Of a stretch of DNA of 64,000 nucleotides, positions 7,602-46,262 are shown piece after piece (position 1 is the stretch's first letter; each line of letters opens with the position of its first letter). The notes beneath the pieces were generated by a model. The model ran no database searches, had not been told where the DNA came from, and saw only the letters and a list, made by a program, of their open reading frames with translations. The stretch is from Cenococcum geophilum (Eukaryota). The stretch lies in NCBI GenBank assembly GCA_050273025.1, contig CP158635.1:17298001-17362000 (forward strand). The letters are read 5' to 3'. Made by a program: the position numbers and the translations under genes.

Positions 7602-8849
7602 TATAAGGGGATCTTGTAGATAAGGGGCTATAAGGACACGATTGGAATAGGATAGATTGGTGAGAGAGACAAATCCTTAAGGAGGTAAGGCCTCTAGGAT
7701 CGTGGAGACTATATACTATGGGCACGTACCTCCGGCACGTGACCGGCGACCATCTAAGGGGCGTCCGGGGGTTGTCCTAAGGGCAACCTAAGGTGTCTGT
7801 AATAATATCCCTTACATTACCCCCCCCTTCTTACAGTTGGCCCCCGATTGCTATTACCTTATAGTAGGGAGATTATAAGGGCTTATCCCGGAAGAGGTTT
7901 GGAGAGATATTAGAGAGGTATTAGTATACCGCTGTATATTATCTATCTATCTAACCCCTACTTTAAACTCCTAAAAAACCTTAATAAGGAAAAAACATAA
8001 CTAGAGAAAAGACGTGAGGATTGCCAGGAGACCTATTGGAAGCCTACTGGAAGCATGCTGGTAACTACCTAGGCTAATATAGGGATTTTTATGCAACTCT
8101 GCTTTTAAGCCTTTATGCTAGTCTATAATTAATTACGAGTATTATAGGTAATTTAGTATTCCAGTATAGTTCCGTAAAACCTTTGGTATAGGATTTAACG
8201 TATAGAGCCTTAGCTTACCGTCGTCTTTAACTACTAAGATATGGTCTATAATCCTTTTCTTATAATCCCCTGCGTCACTAACGCATTACTCCCACATTTA
8301 CCCTTAGGTTATTAAATGCGGTTAAGGTATTAATTAGTCAGTTAAAGAGACTTATCTCTTAAGATTTAGTGCATATAGTTTTAAATCTAGTAGTCCTATA
8401 CCGTATATTTGGCGTAGCTCTACTACCTAGTAAATAGGGACATTTCGCGATAGCAATTGTAGCTATTATGTAATTGTCAAGAACATCTATAACGTTGTTC
8501 TTTAATACTATAGTATCGTTTTAGGTCTAATTTAACCTATATACGTCTTTAATTTAACGTCTTAATTGCCTTCCCCCGGCCGCGTAGTTAGTTTTTATAA
8601 GGAAGTAATAGTTAAATAACTTATACGCGTGTTTCCTTCCTTTTAAATAGCGCTATTATAACGGAGTTATATTAGTAAGGTTGCGGTTATTTACTGGAAG
8701 GGTATTAGAAGGTAAAGTATAAAGACACCTTACTTATTAAGCTGCTCCTTTTTTTAAACACCTTACTTCTCGCTATTAACCGTCGTCTAATTTTAGACGT
8801 ATCTTCAATATATTATTAAGATTTTCTTCTTTTTCATCAATAATTTAAT

Positions 8850-9967
8850 ATGCCTCTTTATTCTCCTACTAACTACTCTTCTAAGTAAAATCCACAGCGT
8901 ATCCTAGCCCTGCCTTTACACATAGAACCCTAACCCCCGCTAACCCATAACTGGTGCTGGTCCTACCTAAATAATTTTGCCTACATGTCTTTAAAAGACT
9001 AGAAATCTAATAATAGGATTCTGGAGACTTATAATAAGACGCACTGCGTTAGATCTAATACCTTTAGTCCTTATAATCGATGTATGTGTACTAAGAGCAG
9101 CAGTTATATTAAAGTAAGTTTTTCTATCCTTAATAGATTTCCATTACTAACTTTAAGCTTCAATAATAGCCTAGGCCTAAGTAGTAATGTTCCTTTAATA
9201 TCCTTAACTACTACATCGCTTAGGCTCTCTCTTATTCTAGCGTAAATGCTAAATAACTTAGCCGAATTCGAGACTATGCTACGGCTATCTATATTACCTA
9301 TAATTCCTAGCAAGCTAGCTAGTAACGCCTAATATAAGAGCAAGGTTAGTATACTAAGGATAGGGTAAGGAATGGGGGTAATAAGAAGAAGGTTGCTGTC
9401 TATTATAGAAAGGAGTTCGCGTATACGCGTTAAGTTTTAAAAGAGCATAACATAATGCGGTATTAGGTAGGTTACCCTTCGGGTACCTAGTAGATAGGTA
9501 ACTAACGGTTGCCGTAGCAAGGTCTTGGTGGTTCTAAACTATACTAGCCAGCTAACATCTCTATTTATTCTAGGCTTAAGCGTATCTTTATTAACTATAA
9601 GCTTACGCCGTAAGAGCTTTATTAGTATTGGTTTAGACCTAATATTAGTGTTAAGCGTTTAAGAGTCTCTACTCTAGCTATACCTTATCGTCCTACCCTT
9701 ATTTTTATGCCTACTCGTACGCTTACCAAGGCATCTAGATCCCATTCTCGTTAGCTATTACTTAGTGGCCTAATAGATACTAATCCTACTCCTGATGATA
9801 ATGGGGCGTAGTAGCTTTTTAGATTGGGCATTTATGGTTTAGACTTTTAGAATTCGTTCTTATACATAGTAGCAATTAAGGACCTCGATTAGGTACTCGG
9901 GAAGGCCTTAAAAGGCTTTTAGAAAGGGCTTAGGAGCCCTAAAAACAATATTCCTAGTATAGATTAA
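8850..9967 (+). pseudogene. Extra antisense two-exon gene inside gypsy A, encoding a Cys-rich (Zn-finger-like) protein
   Basis: ATG at 8850, in frame through WCWS(C)...(C)..THC...P(C)NRC.......(C). Intron 9114-9169 (GTAAGT, ACTAAC, TAG). Exon 2 keeps one frame to ~9811-9967 with only RIP-type stops. The same splice signals are present in copy 2 (28624-28666). Confidence 0.7.
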
Positions 9968-10089
9968 TGAATAGGAATACAATTCTAGCAAAATGCCCTA
10001 TTAACTCTATGCTATGTACGTAAAAAGGCTAAAAACCCGTCCTGCCTTAGGCTATATAGCCCTAATCCTTATAGTTTCCAAAGCTTGTC

Positions 10090-13000
10090 CGTTCTATATC
10101 CGATTTAACCTATTTACTCTTTTCGCGAGTTTTCTTCATAGGTCGCGATAACACCGTAGTATTAGAGCGCTTTTTGCGATTTGTAGATTGTGGACCTTGG
10201 TCCCAATATTCTTTTAAAATATCTTCGCAATAATTAAGGTAATCCTCTAGTTCCTATGTAGAGTCCTTAGCAGGCTAGCCTAGCCATTTAACTTTAAATT
10301 AAAGCTTGTTCTTAATAGACTTATAATATAGTATAGCTTTAACCTCATACCACTCGCCCACCACCTTAGGGTGTTTAATTAGGCCTAAACGGAAGTTCTT
10401 TTCCGGCGGTGGTCTATGCTATAGCTTTAGTAGGTTTATGTAAAACACTAAATATATATAGGCCATAGATAGGGGTAGCTAGAGACGATAGGCTAGCTTA
10501 CTAATTCGTTCCTTAACTTAGAAGGGACCTAGGTATCTTACATTAAGCTTCTTTAATAGTCAACGGGTCTTAATATTCGTTAAACGTAATAGAACCTCAT
10601 CGCCTACTCCAAAATGCTTATCCTAGTACTTACAGTTATACCAAAGTCTCTGCTGCTCTTAGGCATCTTATAGGCTCTACTTTACATACTTCCATTACTC
10701 CTTTTATTCCTAGAGGTATCCTTATACTCTCTAGTAGATATCCTTAGACTTCCCAGTAGGATCTTATAACTAATTATGCGGCTTTAGCTAGTAATTATTG
10801 GGTATACTATTAAACCTAAATAGTTAGACGCTATAGGCAATCTGGATTAGTGCATATTTATACAATATATGTTGCTTTAAATTATAAGCGTACTCTATGT
10901 ACGGAAGTAGCTTATACTAGTTGTCTTGCTAGTAGTTTAAATATATCCGTAGGTAAAACTCTAGTTCCTAGTTCTAGCGTTCCGTTTGCCCATCCGTTTA
11001 TAGGTGGAAAGCTATACTATAATAGTGGTCTATCTTTAAATGGAAGTATAGATCCGACCAGTACTGGCTTGTAAAGACGCTGCCCCTATTAGTAATAATA
11101 GAGTGCGGCTAATCTACTTTAAGAAAGCATTTCTCCTTAATTAGGTTGGCGAGCTCTTATACGTTAATTGTCTTATTAATAGGAAGGTATTAGATATACT
11201 TTAAAAACCTATTAATAAGTACGAGGACCGAATCGTATATTCGTCCTTAGCCATCTTTAGATAGTAGGAGATCCGTAATAAAGTCTATGGCGTAATATTG
11301 CTATAGCTTACTAGTAGGGGGAACTAATTTAAGTAGACCCTATAGCTTATGCCTGTGGATCTTATATACTTAACACTTCTTATAATAGCTGATGTACTCC
11401 TTTGCTTCCTAATTAAGCCTTAGCCAATAGTATTTACGCTAAAGTAATTCCACTGTCTTTGCTTAACCATAGTAGCCGCCTAGGGGATTATCGTAATTCT
11501 TTATAAGAATCTTCTATTATAGATTTGCTTCTTATAGCACCCAAACCTTACTACCTCTACGCAGTAGGCCCATTAAGTCTAGTTCCTAATAGTGGCGCCT
11601 AGCAGCTTCCTTTCCGTTATATTTCCGGTCTACTTCCGCATTAAGAATGGCATAGGAAGCGTCCCTCCGTTGCACCTTATGGATAAGATCCGTTAACCCT
11701 TTAGATGGTTCCTAGGTGAAAGCTGTTTTATCCTATACTACTCCAAGTACGAAACTAGATAGTACTATAGATCTTACAACTCTCTAATACGCGTATGTTA
11801 GGAAGGCCGCTACAAAGTTAAAGTCCTTTAGTTATTACAGGGCTCTAAGTTCTAATTACTTTATAGCTTCGCTATTGGTTTAAAGGGATAGCTTAGCAAT
11901 TAGGGATGGTGTATTACTAAGTTCCAAGAATATATTGGGGACGTCCTATCTAGGTATATTTAGACCCTTATCGGCAACGGACCAGGTACTAGCTAGAACA
12001 TTAGTGGAAACCAATAGGGTTTATACCGCCTAAGACTTAGTATATAAAGCTATAGGTACTCAAGCATCCCACACCTAAAGCTTATTCTGTAATATAGGGA
12101 GTAAGATATTTATTATCTGTTTTCCTTCTCCCGTTTTAAAGCCTTTAGTATAATCTAGCCGTCGTAACGGTTTATTAGCAGGGTTGTTTTCCCCTAGCTT
12201 ATATTTAATCTTAAAATTAAATCGCGTAAGCTCCTCTGCCTATCTAGCTTATTAAAGTATAAGCTCCTTTATAGTTATAAAGTAGCGTAGATTATAGTAA
12301 TCTAAGAGTACACAAGTGATATAGCTCGCGTGCTCGAGGTAATATCACCACTATTTAAAGCAGTCGACTATAGCTAGCAGTTCCTTATCGTAGGTATAAT
12401 ACCTAACTTTAGGTCCCTAGAATTTTCTGCTATAAAATGCTACTAGTCTTTAATAGAGCTAGGTAGCGTCCGGATGCCTATTAGGTTATAGTAGAATACT
12501 AGCAAAGGCAAAATTCAATACATTAGTTATTATTATTAATAGCTAATCTGGGTCGAAATACCGCAGCAATAAAGCTTTTATAAACTTTACGCGAAGTTCC
12601 TAAAAGGCCTCCTAAACCTTTCCGGGCCATAACTATAGCTTATACTATTTAGTTGGTCCCTTCTTAGTTTTCTTCCTTACCGCCTTTAAGCTTTTTACTC
12701 CTTAGGTCGGGTCTTGGGAAGCTTCTGTAATATAATTAAATAGGTATCGGGCGACGTCTAAGTAGTTATAGATAAAGCGCCTATAGAAATTGGCAAAGCC
12801 TAGGAACACTTAAACATCCTAGTAGCTCTCTAGCTCCGGCCACTCCTAGATTATCTACACCCGTACTAGGTCTATAACTACACCTATAGGCGTTATAATA
12901 TAACCTAGGAACTCAACCTACTTGGTATTAAAGATATACTTTAACGCTTTAGCGTAGAGGCCCTAATTATCTAAACGTTCCAGCACTTCGCGGACGTGTT

Positions 13001-16000
13001 ACTCATATTAATCCTCGTCTTTTAAGTAGATCAAAATGTCATCTAAATAGACGACGCATATGCGGTCAACTAGTCCCCCTAAGGCTCTGTAAATATACAA
13101 TTAGAATATTATAGGCGCATTAGCTAGCCCAAAAGGCATCACTAGATACTTAAAGTGGCCGTATTAGGTCTTAAAAGCGGTCTTTCACTTATCCCCTTCT
13201 TTAATACGGAGCCTATAATAGGCGTCTTGTATATCTAACTTTATAAAGATCTTCGCCCTAAATAGTTAATCCAGCATTTTACTAACCAGTAGTAGTAGGT
13301 AACGGTTCTTAATTATAATCTTATTAAGACCGCGATAGTCTATATATAGCCTTATAGTTCTATTTAGTTTTAGGATAAAGAGGATCGGCACGCCTAACGG
13401 CAACTTACTAGGCTAGATCCATCCCTTTTTTAGTAAGCCATTAAGGTACTCCTATAGGATCTTAAGCTCTTTACGCAAGAGGTTATAGATAGGAAGGTTC
13501 GGCGGTTATTTACCTTCTTCTAAATTAATTACGTGATCGTACTCCAAGTTCTATGGTAGGACTTTAGCTCTCCTACCTAAAAATACCCTTAGTAAGTCCC
13601 TTAGGCCTACTAGAATATTTAATAAATCGGGGTCGTGTTTGTCCTCCGCGTTATCGTTAGGTAGGTCCCGGAGCTCCCTTAGGATACTTATAGGCAGCGT
13701 TATACGCTATAGTAGTTACTTATTTATAGTTGCCACCATATATTAAACCGTTTCATGTGGTAGCCAATAGAGGGTAGGGAACTCCTTAACGCAGCGTTTA
13801 AGGTGCCATAGTATACTCTTTGTATATTACTTAAGCCAGAGTAACCCGTAGCGGTTAAAGTATCTTATAAGATTCTTAAGATCGCCGCCTCCCTATAATA
13901 TCTCCGCGACCTATCCAGTAGTTCCCCATAGGGTCTCCATTATAAAGGGGTTATCACCTATACTAAGCTCTATACCTATCTTACTATTAAATAGGGGTTA
14001 GATCCGATACTCCTTTAGGTATAGAGCGTATACTATTTTACCTAGGGCTACATTCTCTAGGATGTCCTTTAGGCTTATTAGTAATATACGCCCTTCCAAA
14101 TCTTTATCGTTTCACTATTTAAAGGCTCCTGTCTTAAAGTATATCTTAGGATCTGCTTCCGCAAGCTAAGGGTATCTAAGGATAAGGTTATAACCTACAA
14201 AGTTAGCCGCCTAAAAGGGTTATAGGCTAACCGCCTTAGTACGGTTGTGTATATTAGCCACTAACACTATAAGCTTATAGGCACTATATAGCTTGATCCA
14301 ATACTTATCCAGAAAGCCTATAATAGGTTTCCACTACCTTTACAATAGGATAAGTTTATGCTCTTTTACTAAATCATATTATATAAGATTAATTTCGGCG
14401 CTATTATTATATAGTACTTATAACTATTATATCTTACCTATAGGGAGTGTTATTTCTAGCTTAACAGCAATACGGAGAGTCTTTCCTTCCGTATCTTACC
14501 CTAGTTGCAGCTAAAAGAGGTCCGCGACTAGGGCTTTTCTTTTTTTAGATTGTTAGTGCGGTTATTACCCTACTTATTTTTCTAATAAGATCTACCTCTA
14601 GAGTTTTCTCTTAACTTCTTAAAGTATTCCTATAAAGGTGCTAGATGGGTGTCGAGTTAGCCCTAGGAGTCTTTCCCGTTATTTAAGGTTCCTAACTTTA
14701 ACCCTTCTAAAGTTCTCTTTAAGAACGGCTTCTTTAAAGGTTAGGTCTGCCCTACATTACTACTAGAGTGCCCGCGCTTTTAGTAACCCCCTAGCTTCCT
14801 ACCGGAAGAGGTCTAGTTCCTTACCGCGTCTTTAGCGTTTAGAACTACTCGTTCGAAATCCGTATATATAGTAATCCGCAATAGGGCTCCCACGCGCTTT
14901 ATTTCATCATAAATTGCTAGCTTAATTCTAGCCCAAATAAACCCAATCTTCTCCTTCTTATAGATACTACCGTCCTTATTTTTAAAGGGCTCTAGATCTA
15001 TTTATTAAGCATAAATTTCTACAAAGTTTATAAACTGGCGGAAGTTATAGCGGTCCAGCTATGTCCTATTCTAGAATAGCTCTATATTATTATATTGTAC
15101 AACATACGGATCTTAAGTCCATTTCTTTAGGAAGGTTTGCAGCTATGGCTATATAGTAATTTACTCTTTATTAAGCTGATTAAGTGCAATCTAGTTTAGC
15201 GATTAGCCTTTAATCTTGCTAATAATCCAGCATATACGCTCTTTAGTATCATCTTATATCATTAGCATCTTAAAGAAGTTGTCTACCTTACGAACCCAAT
15301 CGTCTAACTATTAGGCGTTAGGTCTATAGCGGAGTTCTAGACTACTAAAGGCCTTAGCTAGTTAGTCTATGTCCTTTTTCTATTTATAGCGTAGATAACT
15401 CTCTAAGTCTTCCACACCTCCTTAGGTAAATACTAGGTAGCTCCCGGAAAGCCCTTAGCCTTAACTAGGTTATAAAAGAATTTACCTAGCTTAGATTAAA
15501 CCCTGCTAGATCTGGATTTGCCCTTAAAGGGTTCTAATATATTTATTAGTAGCTTCCTCCCGCATGGCTTCTAAGAGCCTTACGACAGCTTCCTAATATC
15601 CGTTTTAAAGGAGATTAATATAGGGCTCTTAACCTTCCGAACTCGGGCCTAGGGAGGCTCCTGCTATAGAGGTAGTATTAATACTAGTAGCTAGTATAGG
15701 CTTCCCAACAAGGCTCGGGTCCTAAGTTAGTAATTAGCTTAGATTACCTAAAGGGGTAGGCCCGCTTGGCTTATAAGCAGTTTATACACCGCCACTATAC
15801 CGATTATAGGCTAGTAGTATTCCGGGAGGGTTCCAGTTGGTTCCCTAGTTAGACGCGTTAGTATATTCCTCTAGCATTTCTAGCTTAGGGGAAGATCTTA
15901 GAGTCGCCTCTAGCGCTTAATCTTCTAATTGGCCTGGGTAGGGCCAGAGGGGTTCCGGTTGCTTTCTAGCAGCGTTGTGACCGTTATAGAGGGTGTCTGT

Positions 16001-16100
16001 ATTTTCCTTAGCGGTGACTATAGGTGTGCGAGAGTCTTCGAGCTCCTAGAGCATCTAGGTATTAGGGCTTATTTAACCGTCTTACCTAGAGGGTTATATT
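10090..16100 (-). pseudogene. gag-pol of gypsy A (gag, PR, RT, RH, IN, chromodomain)
   Basis: CVVYLDDILIY at ~13028-13060, integrase GPF motif at ~10522-10533, chromodomain-like region at ~10200-10350. Ends are approximate. Confidence 0.9.
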
Positions 16101-16512
16101 GTCGCAATCTCTCACTATTAGAGGGACCTTCCTGCCTTTACGCGACGGCTTTCTATAAGGTATCCGTAGAGTTTCCATTTAGGTTATCGCGAGATTTTAA
16201 GGGAAGATGGTGGTTATTAACAAAAGATATAAACAAACAATCTGGTCCTTAAAGCCGACTACCCTTCTAAAAAAGAGTAGGAAGGATTTAAATATAAGGG
16301 GATCTTATAGACAGGGGGCTATAAGGACACAATTGGAATAGGATAGATTGGTAAAAAAGACAAATCCTTAAGGAGGTAAGGCCTTTGGGATTGTAGAGAC
16401 TATATACTACAGGCACGTACCTCCGGTACGTAACCGGCGACCATCTAAGGGGCGTCTAGGGGTTGTCCTAAGGGCAACCCAAGGTGTCCGCAATAATATC
16501 CCTTACAGCCCC

Positions 16513-20560: not shown

Positions 20561-20952
20561 AGGCTATAGATAATATACTAAAGGACTTTTAAATACTTAG
20601 GCTTATAGTACGTTTCTATCTTAATATATTAAGCTAGTTCTTTTTATTAATATTAATTCTAGCTAGCGTATAATCTTCTTAATGTATAGTATATAACGTA
20701 GCAGTTAGCTATTTTATAGTGCGGATATATAAATCTCTTTATTTTAGCTTATATAGATATCTTTACCTTAACTTATACAGATATCTTCACCTTAGCTTAT
20801 ACGGATATTACAATATTAATTAAGTATATTTGTTAAATATAAGTTAAGACTTAATTCCTATATATATAGTAGTAAAAAGGTAAGAGCTACTATTTTATTA
20901 TTATAAACCCGTACCAATAGCTAACATATAGTAATAGCTAACTTATATCTAC

Positions 20953-22496
20953 TCATTTAATATCTAGTAGCCTAGTATTACGTATAAGTGCAATAACACC
21001 ACACCTTAGGAACGCAAACTTATCCTTTATCTTACTTAAAGAATCTCTAAACTTATTTAACCGGCGGTCCATAGCTTAAACATCTTTCGCTATATTAGTT
21101 ACCCATTTATAAACTATATTAACGCGCGTAGAAACAGCAATTGCTAAATATACCCTAATAGATTCCGTGCTAGTAAAAGCGGTAGCAGTAATAGTAGCAC
21201 CTAGCGTGCTAGCAATTGGTAAAAGAGTTAAAGGAGCAGTAGTAAAGTAGGTGCCTTTACGGCCGCGCGTACTACTATAAGTAGGAGTCTTAATAGGGGG
21301 GGAGGTCTTAGTGGGGGGGGAGAGGCGTAGTAGCGTGGGTGGAGATAGTATGAGAACGAAGCTATACGGATATTAGTAATATCCGTATTATTAATACGCG
21401 GATATTATACCTTCTTAGCAGGCGTTTTAGCTAGACTATTAGCAGAAGCTAACTTTATACGTTTTTTTACCCTAAAGTATAACCCGCTCTAGATTTAGTA
21501 AACTTTTTTATACGCGTATTAGTTAACAGAATAATAGTATACTATTAGCACGTACCTTTCCGCACGACCTACTACCCACATAATATCTTAAGCACGTACC
21601 CTTAAAATAAGGCCTAAAGTCCTTTTTATAAACATAATATTTGTGGCTATACTTCTTATATAGAGTATATAGTAGGTTACGCAGCTTACTAAAGCTACCC
21701 TTAATATTCTAGACGTGTGTTAATATCCGCTAGCAACTTTCCTTTATATTTTCCTTTATATTAGCTTTTAGAATATACCATTTATTTGCTAACGGTACTT
21801 AGATAAAAAGGCGCTTATTTATATTTATGGTACTGCGGAGATTATAAGGGCTGCGGAGATTGCGAGGGCTGCGGAAATTGTAAAAGTTGGCGTTATTAAG
21901 ATCTTTATCTTTACCGCTATTTAAAGGTTTGCTATCTAAAGGGACCTTATAAATATTTAGGTTACTATAAGAGGTAAATTAGTAGATAAGATATTAAAAT
22001 AGTATAACTAATATATATAATTTAATGGCTATCTTAGCCTTTAAATTTATATTAGCAGCCTTTTTAGCCTACTTTTTAAGAAAAGAAGATAAATAAGCCT
22101 TATTAAGTCTCCTTTTAAAAGTATTAGGTAGTGGTAATAGGGAGGCAAATAGCAAAGAAGCGGATAATAAAGTAGTCTACGGCAAAGATGCAGGCAATGG
22201 AAAGGCAGGCAGTAAAAAGGTGCGCGGATTTTTAGCAAATTTTATTTTATCTATATTTTTATTATCTACTAAATCCTATAAAGAGCGCTTTAGTATATAT
22301 TTTCTAAAATCACATTAGCTATAGGCACAATTTAGTACTAGAAAGCTTACTCTGTAAGAACAGAGTCTAAAGGCTTAGTAAGAGCTTTTATAGCGTACTT
22401 AATAGCATCCTCGTTTATTTCGCGTATATTAAGTTTCTTAACTACCTAGCTGCTGTTATTCGCATTAATATCGTTTATAGGTATAAATAAAGGCAT
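20953..22496 (-). pseudogene. Intron-containing gene with a Zn(II)2Cys6-like motif and C-terminal coiled coil, tandem copy 1
   Basis: ATG at 22496, Ser/Pro-rich region, GT..CTAAC/CTAAT..AG introns. Cys motif at ~21556-21690 ending GTC.R(C)....RSC.K|GTACGT. TGA at 20953-20955. Confidence 0.6.
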
Positions 22497-22918
22497 TATA
22501 GATAGTAAAATACTAAGGGATAGTAGATAAAACAACAATAATAAAGTTTATAGTGCGGTCCTATAAAGTAGAAAGTTAGTAGAGAAAGAAGAGGTATAGA
22601 GGTTAATTAAAGGTAAATATCCACGCTACTAATTTTATTAAATTAGCTTACTAACAAATAATTGCTACTATAGTGACTTACCTTAGTAATTATTAATGGT
22701 GCGGATATATAAATATCTTTACCTTAGCTTATATAGATATCTTTATCTTAGCTTATATAGATATTATAATATTAATTATATCTATTAAATATAAGGCAGA
22801 GACTTAATTCCTACATATATAGTAGCAGAGAGGTAAGAGCTATTATTTTATTACTCTAAACCCGTAATAATAGCTAACTTATAATAATAGCTAACTCGCA
22901 GTAATAGCTAACCGGCAT

Positions 22919-24439
22919 TTACTTAAATTCTATATTTAGTAACCCGGCGTTATATATAAGTGCTATAATACTACGCCTTATAAACGCAAGCTTATCCTTT
23001 ATCTTGCTTAGAGAATCTTTAAGCTTACTTAACTAGCGATCTATAGCCCGAATATCTTTCACTATCTTAGTTACCTATTTATAAACTATATTAACTCATA
23101 TAGAAATAGCAATTGCTAAATACACCCTAATATTTTCTATACTAGTAGAAGCAGCAGTAGTACCGGAAGTAGCACTAGGCGTACTAGGAATTAGTAAAAA
23201 AATAATAAAAGTAGCGGTAAAACGGGTGCCCCTATAACTGCGTATATTACTATAAGTAAAAGTCTTAGGGGAAGGGGAGGTCTTTAAAGGGGGGATAGTG
23301 CGGGTATAAAGCTATGCGGATATTAGAAATATCCATATTATTAAGATGCAGATATTATACCTTCTTAGTAGGCATTCCGGCTAAACTACTAGTAGAAGCT
23401 AATTATATACGTTTTTTACGCTAAGGTATAACCGGCTCTAGTCTTAGCAAACTATCCTATATATAGGTTGGCTAATAGAATAATAGTATACTATTAGTAT
23501 ATACTTTTTTACATAACCTGCTACTTAAGTAATATCTTAAGTATATACCTCTAAAATATAGCCTAGAGTTCTACTTATAAACGCGATATTTATAGTCTTA
23601 CTTAACGTATAGAGCGTATAGCGGATCGCGCAGTATACTAGAGCTACCTTTAATATTCTAGATATAGGCATATATCCACTAGTAAGCTTCCTTTATATTC
23701 TCCTAAGCACTAGCTTTTAGAGTATACTATTTATTTACTAACGGCACTTAAATAGAAAGGCGCTCGTTTATATTAATATCTAATATTATAACTTAGGCTG
23801 TCTGCGTACTATAGAGCTTATAAGGGCTATAGAGATTATAAAAGAATAGAGGAGGGCTTTTAGGAGAGTCGGCATTATTAAGATTATTCTCTTTATTATT
23901 ATCTAAAATCTCTAATATTTCTATTAGATTACTATAAGAGGTAAATTAGTAGATAAGATACTAAAAGAGTATAGTTAATATATACGATTTAAAGGCTATC
24001 TTATACTAAACATTTTGCGTAATAATTTTATTAGCTTATCTTTTAAGAGAAGCAAAAGTATAATAAGGATTAAACTTTCTAGAAGTAGCAGGCAATAAAG
24101 AAATAAGCGGCTTAAAGGTAGGCGGTAAAGAGGTAAGTGGTAAAGAAGTAGGCGGCAAAGAGGTAGGTAGTAAAGAGGTAAACGGATTTCCGGCGGATTT
24201 CGTAATAACCTTATTATAGTGCTCTGCTAGATCTAATAAAAAGTGCTTTAGTACATATTTCCTAAAAATATATTAGCTGTAGGCATAATTTAGTATTAGA
24301 AAGCTTACTCTTTAGGTAGAAATTCTAAAGAATTAGTAAAAGAAAGAGCGTCCTTAATTATTTCATCGTTAACGTCGCGCGTATTAAGTTTTTTAATTAA
24401 ATAGCTATCGGACGTATTTAGAGGTATAAAAGAAGGTAT
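22919..24439 (-). pseudogene. Intron-containing gene with a Zn(II)2Cys6-like motif, tandem copy 2
   Basis: Colinear with copy 1 (units ~20718-22696 and ~22697-24620). RIP-reversed consensus (C)AL(C)VEQGHKCRV.KRNSGL.FRGTCSRCHSSSRSCEK. Confidence 0.6.
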
Positions 24440-24699
24440 TATAGATAGTAGTATACTAATAGATAGTATATAAAATAACAATAATAAAGTTTACGGTATA
24501 ATACTATAAGGTAGAAGGTGTGGAGGTTAATTAAAGGTAAATATCCACGCTATAGATTTTATCGAATTAGCTTACTAACAAATAATTACTATTATAGTGA
24601 CTTACCTTAGTAAATATTAACTACCTTATATACGCTTATTTGTAACGCGCAAATCCTTTATAATTAAGTTACTACTAATTAAAGTAATTAGGCGCTGTC

Positions 24700-27140: not shown

Positions 27141-30100
27141 TATAAGGGGACTTTATAGACAGGGGGCTATAAAGACACAATTGTGGAATAGGATAGATTG
27201 GTAAGAGAGACGAATCCTTAAGGAGGTAAGGCCTTTAGGATTGTAGAGACTATATACTACGGATATATGCCTTTAGTACGTAACTAGCGACCATCTAAAG
27301 GGCGTCCGGGGGTTGTCCTAAGGGCAACCTAAGGTGACCGCAATAATATCCCTTATATTGCCCCCCCCCCTTCTTATAGTCGGCCTCTAATTACTATTAC
27401 CTTATAATAGGGAGATTATAAGGGCTTGTCCCGGAAGGGGTTCGGAGAGATATTAGAGAGGTATTAGTATACCGCTATATATTATCTATCTATCTAACCC
27501 CTACTTTAAACTCTTAAAAAACCTTAATAAGAGAAAAATATAACTAAAGAAAAGACGCGAGGATTGCTAGGAACCCGCTAGAAGCCTATTAAAAGCCTAC
27601 TAGTAACTACCTAGGCTAATTTAAGGATTTTTATATAACTTTACATCTAAGCCTTTATACCAGTCTATAATTAATTATAAGTATTATAGGTAATTTAGTA
27701 TTCCTAATATAGTTTTATAAAACTATTTAGTATATAGCTTAATATATAGGGCCTTAGCTTACCACTGTCTTTAACTATTAAAATATAATCCGTAATTGTT
27801 TTATATAATCCTCTACGTCACTAACATATTATTCCCGTATTTGCCCTTAGGTTATTAGATATAGTTAAGGGATTAATTAGTTAATTAAGAAGACTTATCT
27901 CCTAAAATTTAGTATATATGCTTTTAAATCTAGTAGTCCTATACTGTATATTTAGTATAGCTCTACTGCCTAGCAAATAGGGACATTTTGTAATAGCAAT
28001 TGTAGCTATTATACAATTATTAAGAACGTCTATAATGTTAATCTTTAATACTATAATATTATTTTAGGTATAATTTAACCTATATACATCTTTAATTAAC
28101 GTCTTAATTACCTTCTCCTGGCCGCGTACTTAGTTTTTATAAGGAAGTAATAGTTAGATAACGTATACTTATATTTTCTTCCCTTTAAATAATGCTATTA
28201 TAATAGAGTTATATCGGCAAGGTTGCGGCTATTTACTAAAAGGGTATTAGAAGGTAAAGTATAAAGATACCTTTACTTATTAAGCTGCTCCTTTTCCTTA
28301 ACACCTTACTTTCCCATTATTAACCTTCGTCCAATTTTGGACGTATCTTTAATATATTATTAAGATTTTCTTTTTCTACTAACTACTCTTTTAAGCAAAT
28401 TCTATAGTATATCCTGGCCCTACCTTTATATATAAAACCCTAACCTCCGCTAACCTATAACTAGTGCTAGTTCTACCTAAATAATTTTGCTTATATATCT
28501 TTAAAAGACTAGAATTCTAATAATAGAATTCTAGAGGCTTATAATAAGACGCACTACGTTAAATCTAATACCTTTAGTCCTTATAATTAATGCATACGTA
28601 CTAAGAGCGGTAGTTACGTTAAGGTAAGCCTTTCTATTCTTAATAGATTTCTATTGCTAACTTTAAGCTTTAATAGCCTAGGCCTAAGTAGCGACGTTCC
28701 TTTAATGTCCTTAACTACTATATTGCCCAGGCTCTCTCTTATTTTAGCGTAAATACTAAACAACTTGGCCGAATTTAAGACTATACCACGGCTATCTATA
28801 CTGCCTATAATTTCTAGCAAGCTAGTTAGTAACGCCTAATATAAGAGTAAGGTTAGTATACTAAGGATAAGGTAAAGAATAGGGGTAATAAGAAGAAGGT
28901 TGCTATCTACTATAGAAAGGAGTTTGCGCATATATATTAAGTTTTAAAAGAGCATAATATAATATGTTATTAGGTAGGTTACCCTTTAGGTATCTAGCGG
29001 ATAGGTAGCTAATAGTTACTATAGTAAGGTTTTAGTAGTTCTAGATTATACTAGCCAGCTAACATCTCTATTTATTCTAGGCTTAAGTATATCTTTATTA
29101 ACTATAAGCTTACACCGCAAGAGCTTTATTAGTATTAGTTTAGACCTAATATTAGTGTTAAGCGTTTAAGAGTCTCTGCTCTAGCTACACCTTATTATCC
29201 TACCCCTATTTTTATGCCTACTTATACGCCTACTAAGGGATCTAGATCCCATTCTTATTAGCTATTACTTAGTAGCCTAATAGATACTAATCCTACTCCT
29301 TTTTTTTATTTTTTATTTTTATCCGTTGTATTATACTACGTACAATACTGCGCATGCAGCCTTTAGGCTATAGCGCTATAGTTCTATATACATAAATCCT
29401 TTCTAGGCAGCTTAATATGTACTAGTAGCTATGTCCTAGTAGTTTATAAACCCCTAAATTAGGAGTTTATAGTTTCCTAGTAAAATACTAAGATACTACA
29501 ACTACTAGGGAATGAGAAAATGGTAAGAAAAACTGTAAGAAATCCTAACCCCTGTCCCTGTCCTTTTGCAATTTATTTCTATCCTTTTGCTCTCTACTAT
29601 CTTTTACCTAAAAGCCTAGTAGGAGTTACCTCCTTCTAGACTCCTATTAATTTTATTCTTCCATAGAATCTTCTACGCTAGTACTATGTACTAGTTTAGC
29701 TGCTCTAAGATTCTTGCAGTCTTTACTATTAGCAAAGTGTTTTTCTTTACAATTAATGCAAAGAGGGGTGGTATGCTTGCAAGACCTGCCGCTTATTAAG
29801 CAGGTAGGACAGCAGTGGTCTTTAGATAGATGTGTAGCCGCACAATATCTATAGGCCCTATTAGAGCATCTGTCTCCTATATGGCCAAATTTTTGGCAGC
29901 TATTACACTGCGTAGTAGGAGAGACTTCGAGGTATTTTACTACCTTAGTAGCTGTACCTGCAATTGATATCTCTTTTTGCTTAAGGATTTCTTGTCCTTT
30001 TTCTTTATTCTCTATAGTAAAAACTATGGAGCCAAATCTGGTCTGTGGATCGTGTCTTTTTACACTAGATAAGATCTATCTAGGTAGTCCTTGTATCCTT

Positions 30101-32443
30101 ATAGGATTAAAAGTCTTAATTTCTTCTTTTAGAAGCTTAGAGCCTCCTTCTCTTAAGAAAGGTAGGGTAGGAACTCCATGGGCTATAATTTAAACCTATA
30201 GTTCTAGTTTTTGTTCTCTTTAAAAGGTAAAGCAGTTATGCTAGATTTCCTTATATTTAACTAGGAAATCTACATTATACTCTTCCGTAGTCGTAAGGAG
30301 AATATTTTGTTTTCCTTTAGTTCTAGCTATAGATGCTAAAACCGGTTTTTCTACTTGCAGTTTTGATGCAAATAGTTAATTAACTTTGTTTCGTATAGAG
30401 AAGGTATCTAAAGGTTGGTCCTTTTAGTCTGTAATTAAGACTAGCTTTCTTTCTTGTAGCTGCTTTTTCTTACTTCTAGTAGAAGTAGGAGTAGGAAATG
30501 GTAGTGACAAAGAGAGTAAAGAGGACGAAGTAGGGAGGTCCTTTTTTAGCCTCTCTGCGTAGGTTTCTTTAGTAGGGGCTACCTCCTTACGGAGAGCTCT
30601 TACTTCTTCAACTAGTCCTTTTCGGACATCTTTTGTCTTTTCTTTTCCTTTTATAAAGGGATTTTCTCCTGCTAGGACACTACGTGTATTGTCCTCTAGC
30701 TGTTTAACTTGTTCATTTCTGTCTTCTTTTTCTTCTTTTAGCCCTTTATAGACCTGGGTTAGGCTATCTAGAGCCTTTTATAGGTATTATTCTGGAGAAA
30801 GGGGAGAGAAAGATATACTAGGTATACCAGCCGTAAAAGTTATTAGTTTAGTTGTCTTTTTTGCAGGTTTTTGGTTTTCTTTTTTAGTAGAAGACTAAGG
30901 ATGTCCTCTTTTTTCTCCTGTCCCAAATAGGCCAGGAGAAGGAGAAGGGCCAGAAAAAGTGAATGTAGATATAGACTCATTATCACTTATTTCTATAGGA
31001 GGTTTCTTTTTAGGCCTACCGGGCCTTGGCATTATGTCTCTTATAGGGGGGTTTTCCTAGTTTTTACTATCCTTATACCCTTTCTCCTTACTAATCCTAC
31101 TGGGAGATTTCTGGGGAGATTAGGCTAAGAGGTAGTAGGGAAACTAGCCCCTATTTTGTGGTTTTGGTATTGGTGGTATTGGTAGTAGTAGTAGTAGTTT
31201 TGGTGTTCCTGTCCGTGCCTCGCTTATAAGCTAGGGCCACCCTTAGAGAAATTTTTCTGTTGGGAGAAAGGGGGTAAAACGACAAATAAATCCACCTCTA
31301 GCTCGCTAGGCAGTAGGAATTAGGTCTTGAAAGTTAGAAAATCGATTGTTTTTGATGGTAAGATGGGTATGCGTAAGTTTTGGAGTGTGGCGCTACCTTT
31401 TGGTAAGGTTGCATGTGTGGTGAAGGTTTTAATAATCCTACTCCTAATAATAAGGCATAGTGGCTTTTTAGATTGGGCATTTATGGTTTAGACTTTTAGA
31501 ATTTATTCTTATATATAGTAGCAATTAAGGACCTTAATTAAGTGCTCGGAAAGGCCTTATAAGGCTTTTAGAAAGGGCTTAGAAGCCCTAGGAATAATAT
31601 TTTTAGTATAGATTAATAAATGGGAATATAATTCTAGTAAAATGCCTTATTAACTCTATGCTACATATATAAAAAGGCTAAGGACCCGTCCTACCTTAGG
31701 CCGTAGCCCTAATCCTTATGGTTTTTAGAGCCTATTTGTTTTATATCCGATTTAACCTATTTACTCTTTAGGGCCTCTTATGGCCTACTATAAGCTTTCT
31801 TTATAGGTTGTAATAACACCATAGTATTAGAGCGCTTTTTGCGATTTATAAATTATAAACCTTAATCCTAATATTCTTTTAGAATATCTTTATAATAATT
31901 AAAGTAATCCTCTAGTTTCTATATAGAGTTCTTAGTGGGCTAGCCTAGCCATTTAACTTTATATTAAAGCTTGTTCTTAATAGACTTATAGCGTAATATA
32001 GCTTTAACCTTATACCGCTCGCCCACTACTTTAGGGTGTTTAATTGGGCCTAGACCAAAGTTCTTTTCTAGTAGTAGTCTATACTATAGCTCTAGTAGGT
32101 TTATATAAAACACTAGATATATATAGGCTATAGATAGGAATAGCTAAAGATAGTAGGCTAACTTACTAATTTATTTTTTAATTTAAAAGGGACCTAGGTA
32201 TCTTATATTGAGCTTCTTTAATAGTTAACGGGTTTTAATATTTGTTAAATATAATAGAACCTTATCGCCTACTCTAAAATACTTATTTTAGTGCTTGCGG
32301 TTATACTAAAGTCTCTACTACTCTTGGGCATTTTATAGGCTCTACTTTATATACTTTTATTACTCCTCCTATTCCTAGAAATATCCTTATACTCTCTAGT
32401 AGATATTCTTAAACTTCTTAGTAGGATCCTATAACTATCATAT
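27141..32443 (-). mobile_element. Gypsy family A copy 2: 3' LTR, antisense gene and end of integrase; truncated at the Crypton
   Basis: LTR at 27141-27357 plus PPT. Colinear with 7602-10775. Interrupted at 29301-31432. Confidence 0.93.
29301..31432 (-). mobile_element. Non-autonomous non-LTR element encoding only a gag-like ORF1
   Basis: 13-bp TSD TAATCCTACTCCT at 29288-29300 and 31433-31445. A-rich tail at 29301-29322. ORF ~31032-29696 with zinc knuckles QCNSCQKFGH, CRYCAATHLSKDH, CPTC and CINCKEKH. There is no room for an EN/RT ORF. Confidence 0.88.
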
Positions 32444-40111: not shown

Positions 40112-43100
40112 TATTAGTCACACAGGGTGACTTACTAATAACGACTACTCGAGTAGGGTTACAGTGATGTTGGTTGATAAAGCTTATTAATTAAAATAAG
40201 GGAGGGCGAGGAACTTAAGGCTTCTCACCACGCTAGTACCGCGGCAATATATGATGGCAACTTACCATTACGTGACGGCAGTTTGCCGTACGTGGCGGCA
40301 ACTTACCTCATTCCCGACACTAGCAACTCTTCTTTTATGGTTACCATCTATATATAAATACTGCTTAACTATTATAACAAATATAAACCCTCCTTGCTTA
40401 CTATTACCATTATAGTATAAGTCTTGCTGTCCCAAAATTTGCCTCTTAGCACGCGGTGCTTTCTTACTAAGGAGTTATAGGTAGATATTGTGTTAGGGCC
40501 ATTAGGGCCGCTAAGGCGCTAGCTATAAGCAAGCTAATAGCGATTTTCTATCCCGGGGATGGAAAATCCTAATTAGCTAGTTTAAGTTAGGGTCTACAGA
40601 ATCTAACTAATTAGATAACTTTGACCGCCAGTTAAAGTTCCTGGATATTTTAAGGCCTTACGTAACTAAGATATTTCTAGGGACTCCCTTTTTACCTAAC
40701 CTTTAACTTATATATATAGAGTATTTGTGTTAACAAACGTCTCTAGTGCCTTATTTAGGTTCGCCTTTGTTATTATATTTACTGGGTTATCTTAGCCATT
40801 AATTTATTAAATTTTAAAGAGTTTTTAACGTTTATAGGATTAATAAAGTACCATAATGTCGATTATAAGGCGCTTCTCCTTTATAGTACTAAGCTTAACT
40901 AAACACTTATAGAGGGAGTATAAGTTGGTATATATAATTATAGGGATAATAGGAAGTTTAAGTCGATCTATAATTATCTTTAGGGTAGTTCCAATTATAA
41001 TTACTATATTAACTCCGCTAACTATTTTATATATCTTTAACGCTAGAACGCTTTAAGTGACGCGCTTACTCTTAGTTAAGCTCTAATAGATAAGGTTGCC
41101 GTAGATCGTAAAGTTATTTTCTCTAGTAGATTTATTCGCGATAATAATCTTATATCCTAACTAGGAGCTAAAATCTTTATTATTTATAAACGATCTATTA
41201 ACAAATATAAAGAGCTTAGTAGTAGGAAGACTAATAGGCATATAGAGTAGTCCCTAATTAAGATGGTTTATTTGCTAGGAAAGACGTTTATTTAGGGCAA
41301 GAACGTTATCCTTAGTTAGTTCTTAGTGTTAGGCGGCAATAAAGAGATTAAATAAAGCCTTAGGTTAATAGATAAAAGCAATATAAGCTCTGTAAGCGCG
41401 TTGCTCTATATATCCTTACTTTAAGAAATTAACATTAATAACGTTAATCTTCTTACCTTAACCCTTCTAGCGTAAAGCAATAACATCCTTATTTAGGGAG
41501 AGGATGCATTTATTAAAAAGTAATAGTGTTATTAAATTAAGCTTTTCCTTTAGCTTTGCTATAAGATTTGCCCTTACTAGCTTATCTTCTTTAAGGGCTA
41601 AGAATCGGTCGTCTCCTAAGATAATTATATTATTAGTTTATATACCAATAATTCCAAATAGGGTTCCCGTAGTTATAATAAGGAAGCATGGATTAAATAT
41701 AGAAGTAGTTATTAAAAGTTTCTCTTTATAGTGCTTGCTGTAGGTAGCCCACTAATAGGTTTCTGCCTTTGCGATTCTATATAATGGCTTAAGCATAACT
41801 ATAATTATATCCTTAGGATATTAGTAGCAAATTTGCTTTGGAAGGTATGCTAATATTAAGCGCTAAAGGTGCATCTCTAATTAGGTATAGGCCTAAGTAA
41901 TATCTTATAAATAAACCGCCATTCTATTCTTTATTAAGGAGGGAGCTAGCGCAATAATAACTTGCTGACTAGCTTGTTAAATTATAGGAGATTGCGTAAG
42001 AATTACCTCCTTACTATTGTTGTTATAGCCTTAAATAATAAGCCTTAATTTCTTAAATAGGGCGTTAGTAGCTTTACCCTTAATCTTGTTAACTATTCTT
42101 AACTTAAAGATACGAACTCCATTAAACTTAGTATAGTTATACTTCTTAAATTTAAAGACTCCTCTTGTAATAAGACCATCGATCTCCTACTTATTAGATG
42201 CTTAGAAAGGAGCTTCTAGAGTTATAATATAACCTTTTTTTAGAGCTATTTTACGAGCTTAAAGTCAGCCTTCTCCTTAGTTATTATAAAGGCCATTAAC
42301 AGCTTAATTCCGTTCTCAATAGCAGCAACAAATTACTCTTTAAAATTAATAAAATATTAGCAGTTTTATAATCCCTTTAAACAACCTCTACTGCGTTATA
42401 GTTATGGTATATCTACTATAATTATATTAGAATTGTTGTCGCCTTCTAGAGCACGTTAATTGTAGCTCTCCTCTAGGGCATTTTCTATAGCATTCTGCAA
42501 AGGCTTGGAACTATTATCTTTATAGTAAAACTTAATAACAGTTAAACGGAATTAAGTAGGTCTGTAAGGTATCTAAATAATATAAGTCTAACCATTAATT
42601 ATAATAAGTTAATGTGGGCCTAACTATTCTCCCTTTTTACGCTATACGCGTACCTTAGACTGGAGTGGCAGGTCGAGCGTAGTTAAGGTATTTAGGCTAT
42701 TTCTTATTCCTAGTACGTTGTTAACCTAACGTGTGGCGTAAAGACGTTATACCTCCTTTATTGCCTTATAAATAGCCTTAGCTCGTTATATAACGGAGGG
42801 AGATAGTAGAGAATTATTAGTTATTTAAGGGTAGGCGCTAAAGACTAGTAATATGGGTATAAGTCCATCTAAGCCAGCGGAATTGTTAACGGCTTTAATA
42901 GCTATTTATAAGGTAAGTTCTTTACTAGTATCCTCTAGTTCTAAAGAAATAATCTTATATACGCGGTATAATAGCGCGTAATATTATTCTACTTTTCTAA
43001 TACTATTATATACCTTAATAGGGACTTCCTTAACCTTAATTGCTATTGCCTTTATTTATTATTAAAACTCTATAGATAAGAAGTTCTTTCCTACGTTATA

Positions 43101-46100
43101 GACGATTTAATTAGGGGGTCTTAGGTAGATATTAATCCAGTATAGTTAAAGGGTATCCTATATGTTCCTAGTTAATATATCCTTTAAGAAACGTACGGCT
43201 TAGAAGGAGGTTAAGAAATTAATAACTTAGAGTACTAGCTTACCGCTAAAATATATAACGTTAACAATAATATAGAAGTTAAAGTTATAGTTATCTTTAA
43301 GGGTAAACTTAAATCGGCTAAGGAACTTCTAGTTTATTTAGTAGTTATAGTAGTACTTTATAAGGTGCTTAATTGCCTTAACCTTAACTTTATAGCCTAC
43401 TTACTAAAGAACCCTAAGCAATTAATAAACGGATAGGTAACTAAAATAACGGTATAGTTAACGTAACTCTAACTTAGTTAGGTGGCTCTAAGCAACACTC
43501 TTTTCTAGTTAATGAAAAAGTAACTAGGGGTAACCCTACTTACGCATAACGGGTACCCAATTATCTCCCTAAATAAGTATATTTTTAAGGTTATTAAGCT
43601 TAATACTTAATTTATTTATATCTCTAATGCAAAATAGAAATGGGGTATTTATAGGGACAATATAGAAAGTAATATACCCTAGGGGGGTTTGGACCCTAAT
43701 TATACTAAAAGAGATTATAGTACCCTTGCTAAAATAAATCGTGTGTTGGCCTGCCGTTAAATGGTTAATCTAGATAGAGCTATTAAGCTGCTAAAGGGCT
43801 TAAATTTAAGGTTCTCCTGCTGTAGATACTCCTGCGGCTCTAGTATCTGGTATAATACTATAGAAGACGTTCGCCGAGTATCTGTTATTAAAGGAGAACG
43901 CGGAACTCTCCCTTAGCTTATTAAAGATATTTGACTTTATAATAGAATAGAGCGTAGATTAGTTATTAAAAATAGTAACGGTTTATATACCATTCACCTC
44001 ACTATACTTAGTGAAGTATTAGTTAGGAGAGTAGTCCTTAATTTCTATATCTATAAGGAGCTGTTCGGCCTTATTAACCTTACCCTTAAGATCTTCTACG
44101 CCTTTGTATTAAACTAGGAAGCTTTAGAAGTAAGCTATAATAGCCTTATAATTTCCAACGTTTTTTATACTCTAGCGAAACTTATTATATACCTCCTTTT
44201 GCTTATTAAGAGAATGCCTAGTTAACTAGTAATTCAGTTTCTTACAAATATAGCACTTCTTCTGGCAATTACTTTAAAATAAACCTCTATAAGGACCTCT
44301 ACCTTTACCTTATAGTTATTAATTATACCCTCTACCGTATTACCTACTACGGCCACTATATATTTAATTAGTCTAATTATAATTATATTAGCCGGGCGGG
44401 TTAATTAAAGTAGGTTAAAGTTAGGCGTTAAATTATTATACTTTTTAAAAGCGTAGAGCGGTGCTAATAGAAGATCTTAATTAAGTATACACTCCTTTAT
44501 AAGTATTTACAGGATTAAAAAGAGTAAGGTTACATTCTTTAACGCCTTAGCATGCGCTAATGACTTAATTACATAGGCTAAAATCCTCTTAATATAATTC
44601 GGATAAACTACGCTAAATTATCTAAAGTTAATTAAAGAGCTTTTAAAGACAATTAAGCTAAGGGATACCTAGGTTTATAGCAATAATCCTTAGGAAGGTA
44701 GTCTCTCTCTATTCTAACATATACTGCTACTTATTCTCTTTTATTTTAAAGTGGCATCTTAATATATATATTATACGGTTAAAATTATATCCTTTTCCTA
44801 CTAAATAATTATAATAGAAGGTACTAGCTTGGCCCTTAAGCATAACAGAATAGGCGTTATAGTATTAATTAGACTCTATTCCTACCTTTTAGTAATAGTT
44901 ATAAAAGATACGCAATTTCGAATTAAAAGCATTATATAATTCCCTGTTAAACTTCTTCTTCTAATCCAAATAGAGCTTTATAAGCTCTATAAGTAATTTT
45001 AAACTACCTTTGATTTAAGATTAAGATAGAGGAGGTAGGAGTTATATTATAGGCTACAGTAGGGATATAGGTCTAGTTAATAGAGTCTAAAGGGTATTAA
45101 ATTGCAAAGTAATGGGATCCTATTTATGCTCTTATTGGGGTATAATATCTAAAGTTAAAGTTATAGGTTAAATTGGATATAGAGGAGCTAAAGGCAAATA
45201 TAGATTTGTCTCTAAAGGTATATTACTTAAATTCTATTATAAGTTGAGCTTCTTTATAGTGCGTAGTTAGTGCTTAATCTCTTATAGAGTCCATTTATGC
45301 TCTTTTTTTACGTTAATAACCTACTCCTAAATGTTGTTTTTAATAGTACCCCCGTCCTTAAGGACAAATACTCTATTCTCCTAAAGAAAGTTACGGAAGT
45401 CCTATACAATATCCTTATTTATAGGGGCCTATATTTCCTTTATCTATCTAATAAAGTCCTCCTTTATATATTCCTATAGCGCGGTATTATTATATTTACT
45501 ATCCTTATAATATGCTATATAGTATAATAAAAATCTATTTAAGTCTTATTCATTAGCGTTTGCAAGGTTAATTATAGCTTTATTCTATATCTTTAGGTTA
45601 ATATCTTCCTTATACTTCTTTAGGTAGGTTAACGCCATAGTAGGTATAGAATTAACGGGGTGTCGTACGTCAAAGGTAGGTAAGATTTTCGGTTTTATAG
45701 GATCTCGTAGGTTTGCTATTAAGAGGTAGGTAATTTAAGATGTTATTTAACGCGTTTTAGACGTCGTTTAACGCGTTTCGGACGTTAACTTAGGACCCTA
45801 GGTTTAGTAACACTTCTAACCTAAAGTACTTAACTAAATCTTTATAAACGCGGTTGTTCTACGTAATAAACGCAACTTAGTATCTCCTAGTACTTAGTAA
45901 TACTTCTATTACTAGTTTTCCGTAAGTCTAAGGTAGCACAGTATTGCCGGGATCTATTCTATATAAGCGCATATAGCACCCCTGCACAAAACTATCTCTT
46001 CTATTTAAAAACCTAGCTGCTCTATAGTTAACTGTGTATTTAACCACTAATTAGTGTTAGTTATATAGGGTAACTCACCAATAACAACTACTCGAGTAGG

Positions 46101-46262
46101 GTTATAGTAATGTTGGTTAATAAAGCTTATTAATTAGAATGAGGGAGGGCGAGGAACTTAAGGCTCCTTGCCACGCTAGTACCGCGGCGACACGTGATGG
46201 CAACTTGCCATTACGTGACGGCAGTTTGCCGTACGTGGCGGCAACTTGCCTCATTCCCGACA
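40112..46262 (-). mobile_element. Complete Ty1/copia element, copy 1, RIP-inactivated
   Basis: 208-bp LTRs at 40112-40319 and 46055-46262. TSD GATAT at 40107-40111 and 46263-46267. Domain order gag-CCHC, PR, IN, RT (QTDD type), RH. Confidence 0.95.
40431..40682. mobile_element. CCC...GGG insertion (MITE D) in the copia 1 3' UTR
   Basis: Absent from the equivalent position of copia 2 (~55455). Imperfect bipartite inverted ends. Confidence 0.55.

Follow-up and report, generated by a model that had tools for sequence, protein, structure and literature searches.

Not many extra genes are known from LTR retrotransposons, and what they do in plants and fungi is unknown. The closest described system is the Boty element of Botrytis and Sclerotinia, which has an extra gene of unknown function, brtn, lying antisense in the interval from pol to the 3' LTR (Zhao et al. 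2011; cited in PMC8365987, PMC7264820, and PMC4227169). Antisense additional ORFs (aORFs) between pol and the 3' LTR are also described for the plant Ty3/gypsy elements Grande1, RIRE2, Retand, and PvRetro13, where they are reported to be conserved within a family like the element's other proteins and likewise have no known function (PMC7264820). In addition, the figure legend and text of Novikova et al. 2010 (PMC2864245) present an 'add. ORF' without known function in certain gypsy elements of fungi, and extra ORFs in fungal chromoviruses had therefore been noted earlier.

Here, we describe a further fungal example from Cenococcum geophilum. The window, by which we mean the whole stretch of DNA that was analyzed, comprises 64,000 nucleotides (GCA_050273025.1, contig CP158635.1, positions 17,298,001 to 17,362,000 of the forward strand). 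On its plus strand, between the pol gene and the polypurine tract (PPT) of a chromovirus, lies a dead gene with three exons and two introns (8850-9967), which is very probably what is left of a genuine accessory gene that a fungal chromovirus carried opposite gag-pol and that was killed by repeat-induced point mutation (RIP). Its position and strand are those of the aORF type, with the gene at 8850-9967, the end of pol at 10113, the PPT at 7820-7832, and an orientation opposite to gag-pol. Boty and the present element are both fungal chromodomain-bearing gypsy elements with an opposite-strand gene in the interval from pol to the 3' LTR; like brtn as described in these papers, the present gene is missing from standard genome annotation. 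Unlike Boty, all copies here are RIP-dead, and the two systems are likened by layout and not by sequence. Position and orientation also equal those of the plant aORFs, which differ in belonging to plant, mostly non-chromovirus lineages; no sequence similarity to them was found in four protein database searches, which gave only copies of the present family. The architecture is of a known type, and the novelty implied in an earlier note on this DNA was overstated, as brtn of Boty and the plant elements are already published examples of an antisense gene at this position. New here are the precise three-exon model, the unmutated environmental relatives, and a first hint of splicing.

The chromovirus and its two copies

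The window consists mostly of AT-rich fungal DNA (GC 0.27-0.42) with a RIP signature. Copy 1 of the element is a complete, RIP-saturated LTR retrotransposon at 7602-16507 with gag-pol on the minus strand. Self-BLAST pairs its 215 bp 3' LTR (7602-7816, minus strand) with its 215 bp 5' LTR (16293-16507, minus strand) at 91% identity, and inspection of the sequence revealed a 5 bp target duplication, GGGGC, flanking the LTR ends. The PPT (7820-7832, minus strand) adjoins the 3' LTR as a minus-strand purine run with a final eight G before the LTR start. The pol gene (10113-14111, minus strand), which is convergent with the extra gene, encodes reverse transcriptase (RT), RNase H, integrase, SH3, and chromodomain regions; a Pfam analysis returned RVT_1 (1.4e-27), RT_RNaseH_2, RT_RNaseH, Integrase_H2C2, and SH3_Tf2-1, and the Chromo domain scored 26.9 bits against a cut-off of 25.1. 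LTRs, target duplication, PPT, and the order RT - RNase H - integrase - chromodomain are all present. Based on the Pfam matches to RVT_1, RNase H, Integrase_H2C2, SH3_Tf2-1, and Chromo, copy 1 is a Ty3/gypsy chromovirus. The longest ORF to survive between 7000 and 17500 has at most 107 codons.

Copy 2 (27141-29300 and 31430-32437) has the same spacer between pol and the PPT, split by a 2.1 kb insertion. In an alignment of the two copies, 295 of the 316 substitutions are C/T or G/A transitions. The final pol codon of copy 1 lies at 10113 and the gap to the PPT measures 2.28 kb, which, together with the matching spacer of copy 2, bears out the separation of about 2.3 kb previously reported for both copies. 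The extra gene of copy 2 was located on the plus strand in two parts, at 28381-29300 (alignment with copy 1; tblastn with the relatives P0034, P0045, and P0029) and, past the insertion, at 31431-31613 with the rest of exon 3 (tblastn with P0029; junction sequences). Both window copies of the extra gene are dead.

Several other features of the window were recorded. The 2.1 kb insertion, at 29302-31430, splits exon 3 of copy 2; it has a T-rich run at its start, is flanked by a repeat of ~11-13 bp (AATCCTACTCC), and contains Cys/His knuckle-like motifs in one minus-strand frame. It gave no Pfam match at E ≤ 0.01 and has the appearance of a non-LTR retrotransposon that is truncated at its 5' end and was inserted tail first. 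A GC-rich island (52998-55427, GC 0.44-0.50) lies amid the RIP-mutated sequence, bounded by 253 bp direct repeats of 94% identity (52998-53250 and 55175-55427), and may be a young element or a gene that has escaped RIP. The window also contains a large inverted duplication (40730-46197 and 46825-52991; ~5.5 kb per arm, 86-89% identity), a diverged tandem duplication (20750-22696 versus 22706-24620, 72%), and a dense tandem array at 62979-64000 with a GC of 0.62, a strong AT skew, and a period of roughly 60-120 bp.

A three-exon gene model

Exon 1 (8850-9113, plus strand) spans 88 codons and contains the start codon followed by a Cys-rich region with nine Cys and one His; it is supported by the transversion phase described below and by the relatives P0033, P0034, and P0036. 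As proposed earlier, the ATG at 8850 is present in copy 1, where it opens a plus-strand frame with 3 stops in 88 codons, but in copy 2 the ATG is missing, as a 34-nt stretch around it has been deleted. Across the 68 copies compared below, the start codon is ATG in 33 and ATA, its RIP product, in another 33. The exon 1 peptide that the earlier note had read by reversing RIP agrees closely with the unmutated relatives P0033, P0034, and P0036, with all predicted Cys present.

Intron 1 (9114-9169, plus strand) is 56 nt long and shifts the frame. It carries GTAAGT at 9114-9119, ACTAAC at 9146-9151, and TAG at 9167-9169, which is where the intron had been placed before, and in copy 2 the corresponding motifs are GTAAGC, GCTAAC, and TAG. 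The 3-nt indel claimed for copy 2 is seen in the alignment with copy 1 as a deletion within this intron. Exon 2 (9170-9466, plus strand; transversion phase and the relatives P0045, P0049, and P0050) has 99 codons, with a basic start and then a long predicted helix. It is followed by the in-frame intron 2 (9467-9517, plus strand, 51 nt; GTAGGT, then ACTAAC at 9501-9506, and a terminal TAG) and by exon 3 (9518-9967, plus strand), which consists of constrained coding sequence up to 9808 and a Pro/Ser/Thr-rich tail (9809-9967) of uncertain status. A single second exon of more than 600 bp had been proposed; coding constraint does continue past intron 1, but the exon is interrupted by the 51-nt intron at 9467-9517.

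The stretch upstream of the gene (7833-8849, plus strand) is non-coding. Shared transversions fall evenly over the three phases (11/345, 4/344, and 6/344 in 44 copies), and frameshifting indels at 8729-8791 are common to many copies. In P0033 and P0036, an open frame that begins at another Met precedes the ATG by 78 codons (8616-8849). This extension as coding sequence was ruled out by the shared frameshifting 1-nt indels and the even transversions, and the two relatives differ by a compensated frameshift upstream of the ATG; 8616-8849 is probably 5' UTR. The whole of 7833-8849 presumably holds the promoter and 5' UTR of the extra gene. A Pfam search on six frames of 7817-10150 gave no match.

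Transversions shared among copies reveal a coding sequence

Metagenome contigs were scanned with the read-through translation, which gave 185 pattern matches, 89 confirmed relatives, and 80 loci that were kept. All 80 carry the corresponding part of the spacer as far as the contig extends, at 80-90% identity. The 66 loci that span 8850-9967 were aligned with the two window copies (68 in total), and the 14 partial loci were excluded. It should be noted that the extra gene served as bait, so its presence in all copies holds by construction. All 68 copies are RIP-mutated (GC 0.30-0.41) and none is intact, with at least 10 stops in the extra gene of each of the 66 metagenome copies.

RIP makes only transitions and turns CAA, CAG, and TGG into TAA and TAG. 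For this reason, transversions common to at least three copies were chosen as the coding test. From 8850 to 9113, such transversions number 0, 1, and 7 of 88 at phases 0, 1, and 2, and downstream of intron 1 they number 5, 25, and 7 of 265. The third codon position thus shifts by one phase across 9114-9169, exactly as a 56-nt intron requires. By codon position (1/2/3), shared transversions amount to 2/99, 0/99, and 10/99 in exon 2 and to 1/98, 1/98, and 12/98 in exon 3 (9518-9811). Over the three-exon model, the totals are 3, 2, and 29 of 285 each, and a third-position share of 29/34 has a binomial probability of 5.8e-10. The pol control shows the same bias (7/600, 6/600, and 25/601), whereas the flanks are even (2/2/3 of 50, 3/6/4 of 100, and 11/4/6 of 345) and the introns have 0/0/0 and 1/0/1. 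With 29 of 34 transversions at third positions against 25 of 38 in pol, the gene is conserved like the element's own proteins among these gene-baited copies.

In the model frame, 27 of the 34 shared transversions are synonymous, including two CGG/AGG first-position changes, and the seven non-synonymous changes are mostly conservative (D/E three times, A/S, and A/G). The minus-strand frame that shares its third positions with the model makes 15 of the 34 synonymous, and the other four frames 1-3 of 34. A ratio of 27 to 7 in the plus frame against 15 to 19 in the best minus frame settles the coding strand as plus. Indels are in keeping with this frame: exon lengths are a multiple of three in 197 of 198 segments from the 66 metagenome copies, exon 1 being 264 nt in 62 of 66 (the remaining four lengths are also multiples of 3) and exon 2 being 297 nt in 62 of 66.

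Stop codons were then evaluated with RIP-aware column calls, in which C or G is taken wherever at least three copies keep C or G. The residual stops are 0 of 88, 1 of 99, and 1 of 98 codons in exons 1, 2, and 3; for pol, the true frame retains 4/599 and the wrong frames 23-37/599. The earlier expectation of an open spliced ORF after RIP correction is therefore borne out except for two TAG codons, at 9464 and 9809. Taken together, the synonymous excess and the transversion phase in the 68 copies (27/34 and 29/34) confirm that the element bears an antisense, intron-containing, protein-coding accessory gene, as the earlier note had surmised. The protein was under purifying selection between subfamilies while the family was active. 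Because this selection acts at the level of codons, the protein itself, beyond a mere antisense RNA, mattered to the element. The coding status is in this way demonstrated instead of guessed, although every copy examined has been wrecked by RIP.

Pitfalls of reading a single RIP-mutated copy

A single copy is a poor guide to the frame. Over 9174-9967, raw stops number 16 in 264 codons of a wrong frame versus 24 in 263 of the true frame, and by raw counts plus-strand phase 0 and the minus-strand partner that shares its TA dinucleotides appear the most open (19 and 20 stops versus 41-48). The frame with the fewest stops misleads because RIP-made TA dinucleotides share their phase on both strands. 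Raw stop counts had also suggested that intron 1 is an in-frame non-intron, which is ruled out by the transversion test. Openness after RIP reversal on one copy is nearly unfalsifiable, because almost any stop can be reversed (TAA or TAG from CAA, CAG, or TGG), and the proof comes from the 68 copies. Similarly, the window holds 4 patterns of the GTAAGT/ACTAAC/TAG type where Markov simulations give 2.25 ± 1.4, so the splice motif by itself does not exceed the chance expectation. Purine content at the three codon positions was of no help in telling the strands apart. Metagenome gene callers have deposited many wrong-frame ORFs of 9174-9967 (e.g., P0010, P0011, and P0014), and P0010-P0014, P0021, and P0025-P0027 were set aside as wrong-frame ORFs downstream of intron 1.

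Unmutated relatives and the end of the reading frame

Unmutated relatives of the extra gene exist in environmental data. P0033, P0034, and P0036 cover exon 1 in an essentially RIP-free form that encodes nine Cys and a single His, and P0045, P0049, and P0050 cover most of exon 2, again essentially free of RIP. P0033 is encoded on an 8,614-nt contig together with the wrong-frame ORF P0010. All predicted cysteines are carried by less mutated or unmutated relatives, and the Cys codons are thus real. A phmmer search against 1.84 billion representatives yielded 20 matches, all of them family copies with ORFs of 44-157 aa. When 5.8 billion proteins were searched with profiles, 1, 16, and 28 matches were obtained, all fragments of this family, and no free-standing host homolog was found in the four protein database searches.

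The relatives also bear on the two residual stops, which are accounted for only by sequences outside the 68 copies. Position 9464 is a stop in 68 of 68 copies (TAG, or TAA in two) and reads CAG in P0045, P0049, and P0050. At 9809, all 68 copies have TAG, with TGG or TAG as the next codon, and P0029, P0046, and P0065 read Gln-Trp at 9809-9814. Since these three read through 9809 and P0029 is open up to a stop at 9965, the ORF probably ended at 9965-9970 after ~336 codons, as had been proposed. The tail itself (9812-9967, 156 nt) shows no third-position transversion excess and no coding constraint; its length is divisible by 3 in 57 of the 68 copies, and it has been rebuilt with frameshifts in one subfamily. 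A safe coding core comprises 284 codons.

Conservation and probable splicing of the introns

The splice sites, which had been expected to be conserved, are so across the copies. Intron 1 has GT in 68/68 and AG in 68/68, and intron 2 has GT in 67/68 and AG in 63/68, the five AG exceptions being AA, a RIP-type change. Intron 1 varies in length among copies (46, 47, 53, 54, 55, and 56 nt), and intron 2 is 51 nt in all 68. For intron 2, the ORFs of the unmutated P0045, P0049, and P0050 all run into a stop within 9467-9517, and coding constraint returns downstream (1, 1, and 12 of 98). As stops occur here even in unmutated relatives and constraint resumes beyond them, the stretch must be spliced out.

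A hint that intron 1 is removed comes from a 151-nt contig of run X23 (depth 2.7), which aligns to 9060-9111 and 9168-9266 and skips 56 nt. Exon 1 ends in AAG in most copies versus AAA in the window, and given this AAG end, the contig is the exact GT-AG product of intron 1. In a contig of run X24, the 3' portion of the intron is retained. The RNA nature of X23 and X24 is a guess; three guessed-RNA runs hold patchy contigs of this family, and none of their contigs spans intron 2. No sequencing run recorded as RNA holds the stretch, and in the raw RNA run X21 only 8 reads matched, all less than 90% alike. We consider these data suggestive of splicing of intron 1 in vivo.

Introns that are antisense in the genomic RNA cannot be spliced from that RNA and so persist through reverse transcription. 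The earlier note had invoked this established logic for the survival of an antisense intron through retrotransposition, and it fits the presence of intron 1 in 68 of the 68 gene-baited copies.

Features of the predicted protein

The Cys residues of P0034 are spaced as C-x2-C-x5-C-x15-C-x4-C-x8-C-x2-C-x7-C, and the canonical Zn(II)2Cys6 spacing is C-x2-C-x6-C-x5-12-C-x2-C-x6-8-C. Assignment to Zn(II)2Cys6 (PF00172) was rejected, as the spacing of P0034 differs and neither P0033, P0034, and P0036 (E ≤ 10) nor 41 mutated copies gave a Pfam match to it. DUF3716 (PF12511) was likewise rejected, with no Pfam match at E ≤ 10 on mutated copies or unmutated relatives; an ESM Atlas cluster in which 28% of members are DUF3716 ranked 8 with a score of 0.79, under the lead threshold of 0.9. 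Pfam returned two chance rows only for the first database matches (E = 0.037 and 0.16), no family for the 41 mutated copies, and, for unmutated exon 1 at E ≤ 10, no zinc finger and one chance row, DUF3551 (E = 0.11). The best matches to PDB sequence profiles had E values of 0.22 and 0.99, and the best ESM Atlas scores, 0.84 and 0.83, were below the 0.9 lead threshold and belonged to ascomycete 'hypothetical' clusters.

The AlphaFold model of exon 1 had a pLDDT of 49.5 and was unusable. The model of exon 2 (P0045, pLDDT 60.6) contains a 34-residue helix (residues 3-36, pLDDT ~77-83) followed by low-confidence strands. From the pattern of Cys and His, the Cys-rich protein may bind zinc. In Gal4-type Zn(II)2Cys6 factors, a Cys cluster at the N terminus is followed by a short basic linker, a long pairing-capable helix, and a disordered, partly acidic tail. 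The extra protein is loosely like the Gal4 type (PF00172) in layout but differs in Cys spacing. Its Cys cluster, basic stretch, long helix, and disordered, partly acidic tail resemble, in layout only, those of a small DNA-binding regulator. A role as a regulator or anti-silencing factor, as suggested earlier, could be imagined for such a protein.

Discussion

The competing explanations can now be weighed against an accessory gene of the element. One could suppose that the gene is an artefact of RIP reversal, in which almost any TAA or TAG becomes Gln or Trp; for a claim made on one copy this objection is sound, since such a claim is unfalsifiable, the raw stops downstream of the intron favor the wrong frame (16 versus 24), and the splice motif is no rarer than chance. 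The transversion phase, the synonymous excess, the indel lengths, and the unmutated relatives refute it, and we give it practically no chance of being correct. Hardly more credible is a third ORF, env-like or other, on the gag-pol strand, of which the plus-strand reading would be a shadow. After RIP-aware calls an open minus frame of 271 codons does stretch from 9658 to 8843, and one minus frame in exon 1 keeps 0/87 stops. However, this openness results from TA dinucleotides in a phase shared by both strands, no minus frame is low in residual stops across all three exons, and the best one has 15 synonymous versus 19 non-synonymous changes where the plus frame has 27 versus 7. A sense-strand ORF also gives no account of the phase jump at 9114-9169 or of the variation in intron length, and it is disfavored.

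A more serious competitor, which we nevertheless regard as improbable, is a host gene that was captured antisense with its own introns and carried along as a passenger of no use to the element. The ordinary spliceosomal introns, the lack of similarity to retroelement proteins in Pfam, and a C-terminal tail that shows no constraint and has been rebuilt in one subfamily would all suit a passenger. On the other hand, the synonymous excess of 27/34 arose between copies and subfamilies, and thus post-capture, and it is as strong as that of pol; furthermore, the four protein database searches turned up no free-standing host homolog.

Our current hypothesis is therefore that of a functional accessory gene that RIP has since destroyed. 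Its transcription would proceed from the strand opposite gag-pol, from its own promoter, which we infer to lie somewhere in the ~1 kb that separates the ATG from the 3' LTR. The two spliceosomal introns, being antisense in the genomic RNA, would not be removed from it and would be copied into every new insertion, because antisense introns cannot be spliced from genomic RNA. The spliced mRNA would be translated into a protein of some 284-336 residues, whose N-terminal region contains nine Cys and a single His; a short basic segment and then a long alpha-helix follow, and the protein ends in a Pro/Ser/Thr-rich, partly acidic tail. As to what the protein did, the most likely role, which we put forward tentatively, may be that of a zinc-stabilized factor, probably a dimer, that bound nucleic acid or chromatin and affected either the expression of the element itself or silencing by the host. 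Still more speculative, and in our judgment unlikely, is the reading that the retrotransposon encoded a zinc-stabilized dimeric DNA-binding factor, like a miniature transcription factor, that drove its own LTR or blunted host silencing; by this reading, the gene would be carried by a lineage of ascomycete chromoviruses and protected from loss by its antisense introns, and the brtn-type genes of other fungi would then form one widespread family.

For RIP-rich genomes, the lesson of this locus is that stop-codon counts indicate the wrong frame, and that transversions common to several copies recover frame, strand, and introns. If a role as a regulator or counter-silencing factor were true, the extra gene would be an example of fungal transposons manipulating their hosts.
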